Virus genome (UHGV): UHGV-1376660
Direction: 5' to 3' (one strand)
Source: a virus
DNA: 64,000 bases
The translations under genes were made by a program, and so were the position numbers. Below, in pieces: positions 12,992-59,440 of this stretch (its first letter is position 1; each line of letters begins with the position of its first letter). The notes below the pieces were generated by a model. That model had not been told where the DNA came from. It saw only the letters and a program-made list of their open reading frames with translations, and searched no databases.

Positions 12992-13049
12992 GTGTTTACC
13001 TCTGATAAAGTGGCTCTATTCTTACATAAATTAGGTAAGTATTTACCTA

Positions 13050-14735
13050 TCATTTTACGCGTTTGAAAACGTATACGCTGACAGTGATTCCGGTGTCTTC
13101 AAACTCGTCAGTAAACGACTTCCCTTTGGCATAAACGTAATTATCCAGCGTCATCCAGTTCAGAACTGGCGCATCACCCGGCAGTACTGCCACCAGTCGC
13201 CCGCCGACTTTAAGATGCTCCAGCGCGGCCAGCGTATGCTCTCTGTGACGGCCAAGAGAGTAGGGCGGGTTCATGACGATTTTGTCGAACTGATAGCCTG
13301 CGTTGTCCTCAGACCACTTCATGAAGTCACAGCAGACCGTATTTGTGTACCCCTTGCCAAGCAGGATATCAGCGAAGAGAGGTGCGACTTCTATGCAGGT
13401 AACGTCTTCCGGATTGGCGTCGATGCAGGCCAACAGATCTCCGCGCCCGGCTTCAGGCTCCAGCAGCTTCTCACCTGGCTTCAGCTCGATGGCTCTGGCA
13501 ACGTACTCCGCTATCAAACGTGGGGTAGGGTAGAACTGGTGTGATTTTGTATCCGGTATTAAGCCGGTGGCCACAATCGTATTGAGCGTATGGCCGATCT
13601 CATACGGGAACTGCCAGTGCTTTTTCTCCTGCACGCCGCCAATGAAGTTCAGTGTGCGCTCAAGCTCTTCCACCTGTGACTTCTGTAGGTTGGAATCAGA
13701 GAAGTACCAGACGCCTTTGTCTTTGCTGAATCGCCCGTCGCGCAGCGCGGTACGAACCGGCTCGGAGATCGTCTTCTGGATTAACCCGAACTCTTTTGGT
13801 GCCCGTGTTTTGGGTGCAGTACGGCATGGCGCCGGGATTGCTGCAGGCATACTGTAAGCCAGCACCTCATTCAGCTTCCAGGCCACGTCAGGATGTATTT
13901 CAAAGTGAACGTTGCCGTTCTTGAACATCTTCACGCGCATCAGGTTTCCGTCGACATTCATCCAGTCACCGGTCTGGCAGTCGTTTGCCCGGTACGCAGC
14001 TGATAGCATCTCAGTTGTGCGGTTGATGGTGATGAACTCTTTGTGTGCGAAGAAATGAAGCATGACGCGCAGGTCGTCGATGTAGTCCTCTTTCCGGTAG
14101 TTCACGCTGACGCTGTCCCGCCAGAACTCGGAAATGCAGTTGGCGATGATCAGACGCTCGCTAAAGCCGTTCGTCTTATTGGTCTTGTGGGCAGGACTCA
14201 GCGCTTTAAACAAGCCATACACGCGCTCAGAGAGATATTTGTGCCTGTCATTCAGCAGATTGAGCATCGTTGGGATGACCGTTTCTGCTTTAAACTCCGG
14301 CACACCAACGAACTCCTTAACCTTCATCTGGTAGCCGGTTCTGTCAGTCCTGATGGTCTCCTGCTTGCCCTCGATAAACTGCTCACGCCACTCGTCGCGG
14401 CGGGAAGCTGGCATGATCAGCAGAACGTTTGTCATATCCGTGACCTTCTTCCAGTACTCGGCCCAGATATTCTGTTTCACCCATTCAAGGTCGACCTTGT
14501 CCAGCCAGGCTCTGTTAAAGCGTGTGCGCTCGTCATCCGGCCGGTGGTTGAGTCGCAGCAGGCGGTTAATCATGTTGTGGCGTTCGTCGCCATAAACGAA
14601 GTCGTGAACCTGATGCATGAATGCGATCTCTTTCTCGCACTCGGCCACAATTTCGTGGATGACGTTCATTTCCTGCCGGTAGTCGATATCAGTGTTTGGG
14701 GTGATAGCGTCAATGATGGAAAGGGCTGTATTCAT
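13050..14735 (-). CDS. DNA methyltransferase (C-terminal N6A/N4C NPPY-type domain) with a roughly 370 aa N-terminal domain of unknown function
   Basis: C-terminal EPEAGRGDL (motif I) and IVMNPPY (motif IV). ATG at 14735; the track start at 14753 is TTG. Confidence 0.65.
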   Translation of the reverse strand: MNTALSIIDAITPNTDIDYRQEMNVIHEIVAECEKEIAFMHQVHDFVYGDERHNMINRLLRLNHRPDDERTRFNRAWLDKVDLEWVKQNIWAEYWKKVTDMTNVLLIMPASRRDEWREQFIEGKQETIRTDRTGYQMKVKEFVGVPEFKAETVIPTMLNLLNDRHKYLSERVYGLFKALSPAHKTNKTNGFSERLIIANCISEFWRDSVSVNYRKEDYIDDLRVMLHFFAHKEFITINRTTEMLSAAYRANDCQTGDWMNVDGNLMRVKMFKNGNVHFEIHPDVAWKLNEVLAYSMPAAIPAPCRTAPKTRAPKEFGLIQKTISEPVRTALRDGRFSKDKGVWYFSDSNLQKSQVEELERTLNFIGGVQEKKHWQFPYEIGHTLNTIVATGLIPDTKSHQFYPTPRLIAEYVARAIELKPGEKLLEPEAGRGDLLACIDANPEDVTCIEVAPLFADILLGKGYTNTVCCDFMKWSEDNAGYQFDKIVMNPPYSLGRHREHTLAALEHLKVGGRLVAVLPGDAPVLNWMTLDNYVYAKGKSFTDEFEDTGITVSVYVFKRVK

Positions 14736-14747
14736 GATTGCACCATT

Positions 14748-14780
14748 AAACAAATTGTTTTCTTGTTGGTGTTATTTTCC
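14748..14780 (-). promoter_or_regulatory. class 1 element upstream of the 567 aa methyltransferase gene
   Basis: AAACAAATTGTTTTCTTGTTGGTGTTATTTTCC. Confidence 0.55.
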
Positions 14781-14876
14781 CAAAGTTGAAAAGGCGTAAA
14801 AGCAGCATTCACAGGCGTTGCAGCTGATTTAAGGCGTAAAAAGGGGGGCTTTCGCCCCCTGTCGGCAGGTGAGAAA

Positions 14877-15449
14877 TTAGTGGTGTACGTGCTGCGTTTT
14901 GTGCGGCTGTTTGTTCAGGTCGTGGCGATGGGTCAGCTCGCGCATCATGTCTTCAAGACGGCTCTTGGTGTCGTCAAGCTGGTCGGCCATTGCCCCCAGC
15001 AGCTGGCGAACGGCCATCGGATCGTCGCTGTTCAGCTCAGGCATTTTGAATCCAGCCTGGGAAGACATCAGTTTGAAGGCGGCCAGCAACATCGCCAGAG
15101 AAGACTTCAACCCGGCGATTTCACGATCTTTGCTGGCGTTGGTTTCATCTGCCTTGACTGAATCCGGTGAGCACTTCGGCTTGCTTACCATTTCCAGAGT
15201 TGCCTGAAGTTTGTCGGCGCGTTCTTTCTCTTCCAGATACGCTTCGCCGAAATGACGCGCCAGCATCACAATTTCAATCGGATCATCAATCATGCTTGAG
15301 AACTTGAGAACGCTGAAAAGGCGGTCGATAGGGGAGGCGTCGTCTTCGTGACCAACCACAAGACCCATGATCTCAACCAGTTCGGCCGCACCAACTTTTT
15401 TAATCACGCTTTCAACTTTGGCATTAGTTTTTTTGCATTTTTCGCACAT
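14877..15449 (-). CDS. hypothetical protein (190 aa)
   Basis: ATG at 15449 with an AAGGAAAA RBS; class 1 motif at 15471-15500. Confidence 0.5.
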   Translation of the reverse strand: MCEKCKKTNAKVESVIKKVGAAELVEIMGLVVGHEDDASPIDRLFSVLKFSSMIDDPIEIVMLARHFGEAYLEEKERADKLQATLEMVSKPKCSPDSVKADETNASKDREIAGLKSSLAMLLAAFKLMSSQAGFKMPELNSDDPMAVRQLLGAMADQLDDTKSRLEDMMRELTHRHDLNKQPHKTQHVHH

Positions 15450-15557
15450 GTGTTTTTTCCTTATGTTTTTAAACAAGTTGTTTTCTCGATGGCGTTATCG
15501 TGGCGTGACTGAAAAGGTGGGCAAACGCTACGTAAAGGCGGACGCCCACACTGACGG

Positions 15558-57743: not shown

Positions 57744-57992
57744 TTACAGAGTGCTCGCAAAAGCAGCAAATTCTGCATGGCCGCCAATAGGCTCTCCATT
57801 TACAAACACCTGCGGTATGGTCTCTACTGGCTTGCCAACCAAGTCGCTCAAATTTTCTTTGTCGATCCCAGCAGACACAATGTCGATGTATTCGTAATCA
57901 CCAAAGCCGTGTCCATGCAGCTGCTTCGCCAGCTCGACCGCACGTTTGCAGTATGAGCAATTATCGCGTCCGTAGATAACGACCTTCATCAC
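57744..57992 (-). CDS. glutaredoxin / NrdH-like redoxin
   Basis: VVIYGRDNCSYCKRA (CxxC) and IPQVFVNGEPIGG. Confidence 0.75.
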   Translation of the reverse strand: MMKVVIYGRDNCSYCKRAVELAKQLHGHGFGDYEYIDIVSAGIDKENLSDLVGKPVETIPQVFVNGEPIGGHAEFAAFASTL

Positions 57993-58354
57993 TTCACCTC
58001 GTGCAGCTGCTGCTTGAGAAGATAGCCTTCCAGGGGCCAGATTTTGGCAATCGCGTTCTGGCGTGCAATTTTACGTCCGATCTCCGGATCAAAGTTCTCC
58101 GGGCTGGCGCACGCAGACTCGCCGGTTACGGTGTAGCCGTTCTCCAGCACAAGAACGCAGAAGGTCAGCAGTTCGAGTGATTGCGGGGCCGGTTCTGGCT
58201 CTTCCTGCTTCAGCCATAACGGTGAGCTGCGATATCCGTCCGCGCCGGTAAAGTAAAATTCGCCTGAGATAACAGCTTCAATGCGTTCCGGGGTAACGCG
58301 CGCAGCCGTTTTGCCTTTGGCCACAATCTCTTTTTCGATATCCATATCGGTCAT
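57989..58354 (-). CDS. hypothetical protein (121 aa)
   Basis: ATGA-coupled to the glutaredoxin gene. Confidence 0.5.
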   Translation of the reverse strand: MTDMDIEKEIVAKGKTAARVTPERIEAVISGEFYFTGADGYRSSPLWLKQEEPEPAPQSLELLTFCVLVLENGYTVTGESACASPENFDPEIGRKIARQNAIAKIWPLEGYLLKQQLHEVK

Positions 58355-58369
58355 TTTGGTTTCCTTACG

Positions 58370-58573
58370 TTAAAAACGAGCGATCCGGGCACGAAGAATC
58401 AGGCCATACGCCTTCATCGTGTCCAGTTGCTTAATGAGGATGATGCGGTCGACATACAGCAGGCGAGCAAACTCGTCGCCGGCAATGTACGCCTCCAGTT
58501 CTTTGATGCGGCCACACAGTTCTTCGTGTTCATCCATGACACGTTTCTGGTGTGGCAGGTACTCTTTGGTCAT
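58370..58573 (-). CDS. hypothetical protein (67 aa)
   Basis: ATG at 58573; the track ORF extends upstream to 58714. Confidence 0.4.
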   Translation of the reverse strand: MTKEYLPHQKRVMDEHEELCGRIKELEAYIAGDEFARLLYVDRIILIKQLDTMKAYGLILRARIARF

Positions 58574-58583
58574 TGGCTTTCCC

Positions 58584-59358
58584 TTACTGATAGGCTTCCA
58601 GTGCGACTTTGCATAGCTCAGAACGCACGCAGTCTTCGGTCGCAAACTCAATAAGGCCAACATGGGAGGAAGGTTTAAAACGCTCCAGTGCATCTTCCAG
58701 ACCAGACTTAACATTGCCTGGTAGGTCGCATTGCGTCACATCCCCGTTCACAATGACGGTTACGTTCTCGCCCATACGGGTCAGGAACATTTTCATTTGT
58801 GACGCTGTAACGTTTTTGCGCCTCATCCAGAATTACTACAGCGTTCTCGAACGTGCGTCCACGCATGTAAGCGAAGGGGGCAATCTCTACTTTGGCCACC
58901 TCTGGCTTTAAGCAATATTCAAGGAACGAGCCACCCAAACGCTTCTGTAGCACGTCATAGACGGGCCGGAAGAACGGAGCGAACTTCTCGCTCATGTCGC
59001 CCGGAAGGAAGCCCAGATCTTCTTCTGCTTGCAATACCGGACGCGTCACGATGATCTTCCCGACTTCCTTATCCAGCAGACGCTGCGCTGCGACGGCAGC
59101 AGCCAGGTAGGTCTTGCCGCAACCGGCTTCACCAGTGGCGAACGTCAGAGGTTTGGTATCGAGGGAGATAAGATAGTGGGCCTGAGCCTCGTTACGCGCT
59201 TCGATGGGGGAGTTGTCGCGTTTAGGTTTTGGTGGCAGAGCAGGGGCGGCAGCCAGCTCGTCAACGATGATTGTGTCAATTTCGTAGCCGTGGATGCGTG
59301 GTTTTGACTTCAGCGCCTGACGAGCTGCGCGACGCGCCTGTTTACGTTTGTTTCCCAT
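58584..59358 (-). pseudogene. phoH: PhoH-like ATPase interrupted by a +1 frameshift in an A5 homopolymer (plus-strand T-run at 58813-58817)
   Basis: N-terminal part in ORF 58708..59418 (GEAGCGKTYLA ... VILDEAQ). The C-terminal part continues in the other frame (NVTASQMKMFLTRMG...). Removing one A restores the PhoH signature DEAQN.T..QMKMF. Confidence 0.6.
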
Positions 59359-59440
59359 ATTGAGTCCTTTCAAGTGAGTAACTGAAAGAACTATACCGAC
59401 AAATAATAGGTAAGCCATTACCTATTATTGGTGTGTTATC

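Follow-up and report, generated by a model that had tools for sequence, protein, structure and literature searches.

Genomic context and the repeated motif

The stretch of DNA analysed here, called the window, comprises 64,000 nucleotides of the virus genome UHGV-1376660 and carries, mainly in the gaps between its genes, many copies of a 24-bp two-fold symmetric motif, which are probably operators of a repressor encoded by the same element. Between positions 26000 and 34000 the window is 97.8% identical over the full length to Salmonella phage SSU5 (~98% for the whole window) and ~77-78% identical to Klebsiella and E. coli phage-plasmids (pJN2-26, Cyrano and others); judged by its sequence, it is classified as an SSU5-type phage-plasmid. 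According to the SSU5 annotation, nearly all genes from ~7 kb to 59 kb lie on the minus strand. To the right of ~54463 the window diverges from SSU5 and shows a small gene, an XRE-type regulator, a tyrosine recombinase, a YafO toxin and phoH, a layout common to Cyrano and to Klebsiella, Serratia and Photorhabdus elements.

The initial annotation had described a perfect 24-bp palindrome repeated at least 14 times. A repeated two-fold symmetric motif does exist, but its copies are degenerate, and the 24-mer given for it, TGATAGGTAAGTACTTACCTATCA, has no exact match in the window and only three sites within three mismatches. Since a search with the 14-mer core allowing up to four mismatches proved too noisy (32 matches versus 22 expected), an iterated profile was used instead, which converged on ~20 sites, followed by a palindromic profile in which copies of at least 20 bits were counted as strong. 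The window contains 15 strong copies, compared with a mean of 0.003 after shuffling of intergenic sequence with its composition kept. Of the strong copies, 13 are centred in intergenic DNA, which makes up 14% of the window (binomial P = 6e-10), and the remaining two sit on gene edges. Thirteen of the 15 positions listed originally are found among these strong copies, while 18885 is borderline (18885-18908, 16.2 bits; not counted as confirmed) and 63370, with a best score of 10.6 bits, is unsupported; copies at 3826 and 51988 and a weak pair at 54875/54912 had not been listed.

The conserved pattern can be written A-ATA-R-GTAAG-N2-CTTAC-Y-TAT, with T8 and A17 invariant and the centre variable. 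Its information content is mirror-symmetric, and the half-site positions 6 and 19 vary independently. Only the flanking A just upstream in the coding direction depends on orientation: it is present in 27/36 enterobacterial and 24/28 Acinetobacter copies, whereas the mirrored T is present in 17/36 and 11/28, respectively. A second conserved word accompanying the copies was sought, and none was found except the start-codon context.

For an analysis of base pairing, 128 distinct copies were pooled from the window, SSU5, Cyrano, two Klebsiella plasmids, an E. albertii plasmid and 75 IMG/VR loci. Only two of the 128 are perfect palindromes; the commonest number of non-complementary positions is four of 11, and in the window copies it ranges from one to seven. 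Watson-Crick complementarity between the arms amounts to 937/1408, compared with 949 +/- 11 after column shuffling, and mismatches of the G·U type are about as frequent as those of the A·C type (124 versus 119), neither strand being favoured. In RNA folding, most window copies reach only 0 to -6 kcal/mol, as against -13.5 to -18 for the GC-rich terminators of the same genome, although the 10-bp stem of the consensus would reach -11.1 kcal/mol. The lack of any excess of pairing, the equal mismatch types and the weak folding point to a site in duplex DNA, recognised by a two-fold symmetric protein that reads each half-site separately, and not to a hairpin.

Motif copies in the window

The genes that the initial annotation had placed downstream of the copies (methyltransferase, thyA, nrdA, sbcD, ssb, the SPFH partner and phoH) were confirmed in these places, and the separate GGCCAC..GTGGCC terminators are present as well. 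The copy at 3826-3849 (21.1 bits) has a terminator upstream and the next gene start ~42 nt downstream, and the copy at 13029-13052 (30.8 bits) overlaps the stop codon of a DUF4942 methyltransferase gene and is followed by a conserved TGTAAGAAT. The best copy of the window, at 17303-17326 (35.0 bits), overlaps the RNase H stop codon and lies directly upstream of a candidate structured non-coding RNA; the sigma-70-like hexamer pair GTGACA-17-AATGAT (17351-17323) overlaps it, this pair and all those given below being on the coding strand. At 18499-18522 (28.0 bits) a perfect GGTAAGTACTTACC core is followed by TTTAAA-17-TAAAAT (18502-18474), which overlaps the motif, and by ~570 bp of conserved non-coding DNA, and at 19557-19580 (34.2 bits) the motif lies 10 nt before the start of an adenine methyltransferase gene. 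Two copies are located close to each other: 24404-24427 (29.4 bits) precedes thyA, and its upstream arm is overlapped by CTGACA-17-TAATAT (24450-24422), whereas 24558-24581 (23.3 bits) overlaps the stop codon of a MazG-like gene, with TTGTAA-17-TATATT (24577-24549) overlapping the motif and a terminator 52 nt downstream.

Ahead of nrdA, the copy at 29140-29163 (34.2 bits) is overlapped by TTGATA-17-TAACAT (29164-29136), and a GGCCAC terminator begins 4 nt past the motif. The copy at 33835-33858 (28.4 bits) lies 113 nt before sbcD. At 38243-38266 (25.6 bits) the motif abuts a start codon and its centre forms the -10 of a conserved TTTACA-17-TAGTAT (38281-38253), and at 38571-38594 (25.4 bits) it lies 11 nt before a start codon. 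The copy at 40621-40644 (30.9 bits) follows just past a terminator and is spanned by TTGAAA-17-TATCAT (40648-40620), which agrees with the sigma-70 consensus at 10/12 positions. Further copies are found 84 nt before ssb (44144-44167, 23.4 bits), between the CobT-like and CobS-like genes (51988-52011, 20.5 bits) and before phoH (59404-59427, 26.5 bits).

Such hexamer pairs overlap ~7/13 copies of the block on the coding strand, two further pairs being antisense, and some are kept in relatives, such as TTTACA before 38243 and TTGATA-17-TACTAT/TAACAT before nrdA. A fixed register between motif and promoter was sought among the copies and none was found, the motif covering the -35, the spacer, the -10 or the +1, and the antisense strand offers a -10-like hexamer no poorer than that of the coding strand. 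Variable registers of this kind fit operators better than a promoter element, and neither they nor the further copies between late and lysis genes and at the repressor promoter support the proposal of a middle-class promoter element. No fixed geometry between motif and terminator was found either, using a detector that under-called some terminators visible by eye: terminators lie just upstream of the copies at 40621, 3826, 24404 and 19557, and just downstream of the copy at 29140 and of those at SSU5 5469 and SSU5 15587. Some copies have no room for a promoter serving the next gene, for example in the 33-bp terminase/portal gap of SSU5, and these are therefore suggested to be roadblocks.

Some of the sites display further conserved features. 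Two motif copies are followed, after 3-4 nt, by TGTAAGAAT (window 13053-13064; SSU5 record 38204, 84203), which at the 13029 site does not vary among five genomes; it resembles an extended -10, in which case an operator there would cover the -35 region. At nrdA (29112-29163), the predicted -10, TAACAT or in relatives TACTAT, is followed 2-4 nt later by a strong terminator hairpin that ends 13 nt before the start codon. Transcripts from the predicted promoter would miss part of the 5' arm of this hairpin, and the terminator might thus stop only read-through from upstream; the same order of motif and terminator is repeated at SSU5 5469, after the capsid gene, and at SSU5 15587. Near sbcD (~33722-33896), SSU5_072 (167 aa, opposite strand) and ~590 bp are missing from the window, and the copy at 33835 differs from its SSU5 counterpart at four positions.

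The candidate small RNA directly downstream of the copy at 17303 (17195-17295, minus strand) is ~100 nt long, with three stem-loops and a terminator (GCGGCTGG..CCAGCCGC). Its conservation extends over six genomes, 10 base pairs being retained despite changes on both sides, and it matches no Rfam family; an Rfam scan of the window gave nothing at the gathering threshold, and a permissive scan of 17100-18600 gave one chance-level match. The ~570 bp of conserved non-coding DNA between RNase H and the copy at 18499 (17926-18498, e.g. CTCGACCTGATGGGTGGGGGATAGCGTCACTGGCGTCAGG) may hold another non-coding RNA. In Cyrano a small open reading frame (ORF), CYRAN_81, is annotated at this position, and its transcription is 12-fold above background in lysogens.

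Distribution and conservation in related elements

In the SSU5 genome, reassembled in whole from four pieces, we found 24 motif copies, 23 of them in gaps, although intergenic DNA accounts for only 11.6% of this genome; shuffled versions reached a maximum of 21 bits, with a 95th percentile of 17.4. The copies include the terminase/portal gap, the gap after the capsid gene, gaps between tail genes and the gaps before the tail-fibre and holin genes. As the motif occurs in late-gene gaps genome-wide, it does not mark a regulon of the replication block, to which the initial annotation had confined it. The two regulons of a temporal programme are likewise not supported, since copies also occur between late and lysis genes and at the repressor promoter.

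Copies usually lie no more than ~17 nt from the upstream stop codon and at a median of ~44 nt from the next start (range -1 to >100 nt); six of the 24 SSU5 copies end 15 nt or less before a start codon. About 30% of the SSU5 gaps of at least 24 bp hold a copy. No copy was found at the plasmid-state genes repA and hicAB, which are transcribed in the opposite direction, the hicAB promoter being a plain TTGACA-17-TAGTAT.

Orthologous copies keep their sequence among genomes with 70-78% DNA identity while the flanks diverge, and the differences between them are uncompensated and concentrated in the centre and at the R/Y positions. Relatives therefore keep the sequence and not the pairing, the opposite of what had been named beforehand as the mark of plain terminators. 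Among 5426 complete E. coli genomes, 840 matches to the consensus were found in 218 genomes, all on plasmids of ~106-116 kb, and none on a chromosome, on which ground a site for a host factor was rejected.

Related motifs were also found in more distant lineages. A phage-plasmid of Acinetobacter baumannii shares the backbone synteny (NrdA 27% identical) and carries 28 copies per 100 kb of ATATTAGTAAGCGCTTACTAATAT, in gaps genome-wide. This sequence ranks top in an unbiased search for enriched inverted repeats in that element and has the same inner core as the window motif, GTAAG-N2-CTTAC, while the outer arms differ. Its XRE homologue is 38% identical, with the partly changed helix NQNMVSFIVRGK; the regulatory gap of this gene holds only weak copies, one of which has the half-site ATATCAGTAAG in common with the copy O1 of the window described below. 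The CobT-CobS-DnaE-SSB-RecA-SbcCD backbone recurs in Rhizobium phage RHEph10, which also encodes an XRE homologue (33-40% identical). In this phage AGTCAGTCAATATTGACTGACT occurs ~13 times per 40 kb, where 0.5 would be expected, and one copy is located 150 nt upstream of the homologue's gene. By comparison of these sequences, a palindrome of its own and an XRE homologue are present in each of the enterobacterial, Acinetobacter and Rhizobium lineages.

Directly after CobS, the Acinetobacter element (L092, 33885-34550) and RHEph10 (L093, 24574-25209) encode a protein resembling sigma-70 region 2, whereas the SSU5 group shows only an ORF of 58-67 aa at this position. RHEph10 further contains a separate asymmetric intergenic motif, GCGCTAT(T/A), which is promoter-like in look and may be a promoter read by the sigma-like protein. 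A phage sigma factor as the shared reader was rejected for the SSU5 group, in which no homologue of the Acinetobacter sigma-like gene was detected; the Pfam match of the latter is itself below the cutoff.

The candidate repressor and its promoter

The candidate binding protein is a 128-aa regulator of the XRE type with a helix-turn-helix (HTH), encoded at 54962-55348 on the plus strand. It matches phrog_8 (E = 7e-12) and, weakly, the Pfam family HTH_31, is orthologous to the 'putative repressor' CYRAN_45 of Cyrano and is absent from SSU5. Orthologues of 65-67% identity are found in Cyrano, where the gene lies beside the integrase, and in Klebsiella and E. coli phage-plasmids, and in the plasmid collection searched the gene was present in 869 plasmids, nearly all non-mobilizable and of ~110 kb, always beside an integrase. 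In E. coli LF82 lysogens, CYRAN_45 was transcribed ~10-fold above the prophage background, and Cyrano was induced 39-fold by ciprofloxacin (PMC9928086).

The AlphaFold model of the protein (predicted local distance difference test, pLDDT, 78.7) shows an HTH domain and a helical C-terminal part. Among solved structures, the folds closest to it are those of dimeric regulators that bind operators, namely SaPI Stl, C.AhdI, C.Esp1396I, ClgR, SinR, HigA and the Salmonella phage repressor 5d4z, with Foldseek E-values of only ~1e-2, and the sequence of the protein matches no solved structure. Homologues with as little as 47% overall identity still show almost the same predicted recognition helix, NANNLSLIKSGK. 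A self-cleaving peptidase (S24) domain is lacking.

The predicted promoter of this gene (54888-54915, plus strand) consists of the -35 TTTACA (54888-54893), a 16-nt spacer and the extended -10 TGTAATAT, with its hexamer at 54910-54915. Two weak copies of the motif lie on it: O2 (54875-54898) overlaps the -35 and is, in the Serratia relative, the best-scoring copy of the region, while O1 (54912-54935) has its core, GTAAGCACTTACC, directly after the -10 and is invariant in 44 distinct orthologous regions. In these 44 upstream regions, whose proteins are 66-99% identical, the whole block TTTACA-16-TGTAATAT-C-R-GTAAGCACTTACC is invariant, whereas the sequence farther upstream diverges. From its sequence, the block reads as a canonical promoter with the core of the motif over the predicted start site. 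Copies in the repressor gap are likewise present in the Kp685 Klebsiella plasmid (48% identity) and in Serratia (57%) and Photorhabdus (52%) elements, and the synteny of small gene, XRE gene and integrase is retained in these positional orthologues.

The small gene, transcribed divergently from the repressor gene (54485-54697, minus strand), encodes a protein of 70 aa (phrog_2627), is syntenic in all lineages examined and is possibly a Cro-like partner. Other potential binders encoded in the window, namely Rha/Ant (15558-16373), a HicB-like protein (45169-45732), an HTH_7 fragment (59481-59702) and a FljA-like fragment (140-436), were rejected, as no link supported them.

Two near-consensus LexA boxes were identified. 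The first, TACTGTATGCATAAACAGTA (56473-56492), lies ~27 nt upstream of the recombinase gene (55340-56446, minus strand), which runs towards the repressor gene and extends 9 nt into its 3' end; this box is conserved in Cyrano, Kp685, the Serratia element and 67/72 IMG/VR loci. The second, TACTGTATAAATAAACAGTA (9337-9356), is located directly upstream of a small gene (9055-9336, minus strand). Both suggest an SOS-driven induction, via convergent transcription into the repressor gene and/or an antirepressor.

Function of the motif

On balance, the copies are probably operators of a two-fold symmetric protein encoded by the element itself, most likely the 128-aa XRE repressor. Of the functions that the initial annotation had considered, an operator for a dimeric repressor is thus the one favoured here, in view of the symmetric information, the independent half-sites, the conserved copy at the XRE promoter and the restriction to one plasmid family. 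The transcription of CYRAN_45 in lysogens, the lack of copies at repA and hicAB and the joint variation of palindrome and XRE homologue between lineages also speak for this reading. A dimer or higher oligomer would recognise ATA-R-GTAAG-N2-CTTAC-Y-TAT, with copies in nearly every sizeable gap between genes of the lytic direction. Where copies lie over sigma-70-like hexamers, in whatever register, the bound repressor would occlude RNA polymerase in the plasmid state, and read-through transcription would be halted, as by a roadblock, at copies that lack space for a promoter, so that ~100 kb of phage genes would be kept silent. The weak copies over the +1 and the -35 of the repressor's own promoter would provide negative autoregulation. 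As the protein has no self-cleaving peptidase domain, induction must be indirect, and the conserved LexA boxes nearby suggest SOS as its route.

Several points weigh against this explanation. Promoter-like pairs overlap only about half of the copies of the block, as given above, and promoter-like matches in total are not above chance. The link of the motif to the XRE protein specifically is circumstantial, and, with ~30% of gaps holding a copy, finding one in the gap of the repressor gene is improbable to only a moderate degree. SSU5 has no repressor gene and yet retains all its copies, although this is uninformative, the split being too recent (~98% identity). The directional flanking A is not explained by a purely symmetric operator. 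Repressor specificities normally diversify, and deep conservation of the core of an immunity operator across bacterial orders is unusual; on the other hand, 25-30 copies per genome would strongly constrain any change of the operator. Finally, two ParB-like proteins common to the SSU5 and Acinetobacter groups could be the binder and constitute a genuine rival.

It is unlikely, though the idea deserves serious consideration, that the motif instead switches the lytic genes on, either as the target of a transcription factor of the lytic phase or as a component of a promoter specific to the phage. The binder would then be an activator, a Cro-like protein such as the product of the divergent 70-aa gene, a phage sigma factor or an appropriator, and the copy at the repressor promoter would serve to turn the repressor off. 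The position of the motif upstream of lytic-direction genes throughout the genome, at the median distance to the start given above, is consistent with such a role, as are the TATCAT, TATAAT or TAATAT in the gene-proximal arm of several copies, accompanied by a correctly spaced -35-like TTGA, and the structured RNA candidate starting just downstream of the copy at 17303. Deep conservation also suits an element read by the transcription machinery, and a sigma-like protein is encoded after CobS in the Acinetobacter and Rhizobium relatives. However, the information is symmetric, unlike that of promoters, the register to the sigma-70-like hexamers is inconstant, and the antisense -10-like hexamers are no worse than those of the coding strand. 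The six SSU5 copies next to start codons are too close to them for a transcription start and a ribosome-binding site to fit in between, and at the repressor gene a complete canonical promoter precedes the motif. Neither the window nor SSU5, Cyrano or Kp685 has a detectable sigma homologue, and the match of the Acinetobacter 'sigma' falls below the Pfam cutoff.

Even less probable are KorB-like or parS-like sites for a ParB-family protein of the element, which would serve global silencing and/or plasmid partition. A palindrome dispersed over a plasmid is in the style of parS, both SSU5 and the Acinetobacter relative encode two ParB-like proteins, and SSU5 retains motif and ParB-like genes without the XRE gene; moreover, a strong copy lies 17 nt upstream of the Acinetobacter ParB gene, and a degenerate SSU5 copy overlaps the start of a ParB-like gene. 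The latter copy is weak (8.5 bits), though, and no cluster of copies was found at either par locus. The copies avoid plasmid-maintenance genes and follow the gaps of the lytic direction, and it is the XRE promoter, not par, that shows the clean and invariant footprint. With 24 bp and two conserved blocks per half-site, the motif also exceeds typical ParB sites (parS, KorB operators), which have 13-16 bp.

A hairpin in RNA or single-stranded DNA, be it an intrinsic terminator (possibly antisense), an RNase processing site, an mRNA-stabilising hairpin or a translational operator, appears very improbable. The 10-bp stem that the consensus can form, the proximity of most copies to an upstream stop codon and the T-runs after most copies on the plus strand would suit a hairpin; nevertheless, the RNA hairpin for processing or translational control put forward initially is rejected in view of the pairing, the mismatch types on either strand and the folding energies of the actual copies. 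In addition, the changes between orthologous copies are uncompensated, and genuine GC-rich terminators stand beside many copies, on either side. That the copies, being short, AT-rich and intergenic, are a functionless selfish miniature repeat or a by-product of the composition of AT-rich gaps is scarcely credible, because shuffles of the same composition yield 0.003 copies and because orthologous positions are retained among genomes differing by 22-30% in DNA, conservation is position-specific (T8 and A17 invariant) and lineage-specific variants are kept in the Acinetobacter and Rhizobium relatives.

Comparison with known systems

The stoperators of L5 and the Cluster A phages, bound by the repressor gp71, are asymmetric 13-bp sites oriented with transcription, with >20 per genome in early and late gaps. 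The motif described here resembles them in the number of sites (24 in SSU5, 28 per 100 kb in the Acinetobacter element), in their location in short gaps of early and late units, in the presumed silencing of a whole prophage and in the many copies that would tie the evolution of repressor and site to each other. It differs in being a two-fold symmetric 24-mer instead of an asymmetric 13-mer of single orientation, and in host phylum, repressor family and plasmid lifestyle, and a block of elongation is only proposed here. The C1 operators of P1 are asymmetric 17-mers bound by an unrelated repressor and are not known to occur in late-gene gaps, the late genes being controlled via Lpa. They share with our motif the dispersal around a plasmid prophage before separate operons and an indirect induction, in P1 through routes of the antirepressor type; the symmetric 24-mer, its presence also between structural and lysis genes and the small XRE protein as candidate repressor set our system apart. 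L5 stoperators and P1 C1 operators are the closest in working logic, but the motif belongs to neither family, since their sites are asymmetric and bound by unrelated repressors.

With the lambda-type CI/Cro and other XRE pairs, our candidate has in common the XRE HTH fold with a helical C-terminal domain, an inverted-repeat operator, a repressor gene divergent from a small gene and operators over its own promoter. In classical systems a single immunity region holds 3-6 operators, whereas ~25 dispersed copies are found here, and our protein has no S24 peptidase domain, no sequence similarity to solved structures and fold E-values of ~1e-2. RK2 carries 12 dispersed KorB operators (OB) and N15 dispersed SopB sites (parS); these, too, are dispersed plasmid palindromes, for global repression and/or partition, and ParB-family genes occur in SSU5 and the Acinetobacter relative, but our copies follow the lytic-direction gaps and the XRE promoter and not the par loci. 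The protein and the type of site are those of an ordinary XRE repressor with an inverted-repeat operator, a presumed pair whose genome-wide use is unusual.

No published description of the motif or of immunity control in the SSU5 group was found in a limited search of the literature, so that a prior description is possible; the reviews and papers covered by it describe no lysis-lysogeny control for this group. As a tentative and rather doubtful extension, we propose a superfamily of ~100-120-kb siphovirus phage-plasmids comprising the SSU5/pHCM2, pKpn and Cyrano types of Enterobacterales, the AB type of Acinetobacter and the RHEph10-type Rhizobium phages. Each would be silenced by one small XRE repressor via 25-30 palindromic sites in almost every gap, through promoter occlusion and stoperator-like roadblocks, repressor and sites having co-evolved for long, and an SOS switch would act from the LexA-controlled recombinase gene converging on the repressor gene. 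If true, this would be the first stoperator-like global system outside the actinobacteriophages, and one built from symmetric sites. A genome-wide symmetric operator with variants out to Acinetobacter and Rhizobium would also carry stoperator-style logic beyond the mycobacteriophages.

SSU5/pHCM2-type phage-plasmids are common in Salmonella, E. coli, Klebsiella, Enterobacter and Yersinia and carry resistance and fitness genes. Should the motif be the operator set of the XRE protein, it would offer a regulatory map of the family, a simple predictor of the genes that are silent in the plasmid state and, with repressor, operator and LexA boxes, a handle for inducing or curing these plasmids.

Other features of the window

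SSU5 lacks the whole module at ~54463-59430 (small gene, XRE repressor, recombinase, YafO toxin, phoH) and carries a tRNA-Asn there instead; a tRNA scan of the entire window found none. SSU5 looks like a deletion derivative that has lost its lysogeny module. The gene of DNA polymerase III alpha, dnaE, is one ORF of 3519 bp in SSU5 and is split in the window (46202-47371 and 48151-50514) by an extra ORF (47368-48102) with HNH_3 and NUMOD3 domains, a homing endonuclease insertion. Accessory cargo was identified at both ends of the window, namely the FljA-like fragment (Flag1_repress) at 140-436 and, at 59481-59702, the HTH_7 fragment, a 73-aa HTH of the resolvase/invertase type, followed at 60070-63324 by a 1084-aa autotransporter in a region of low GC content.

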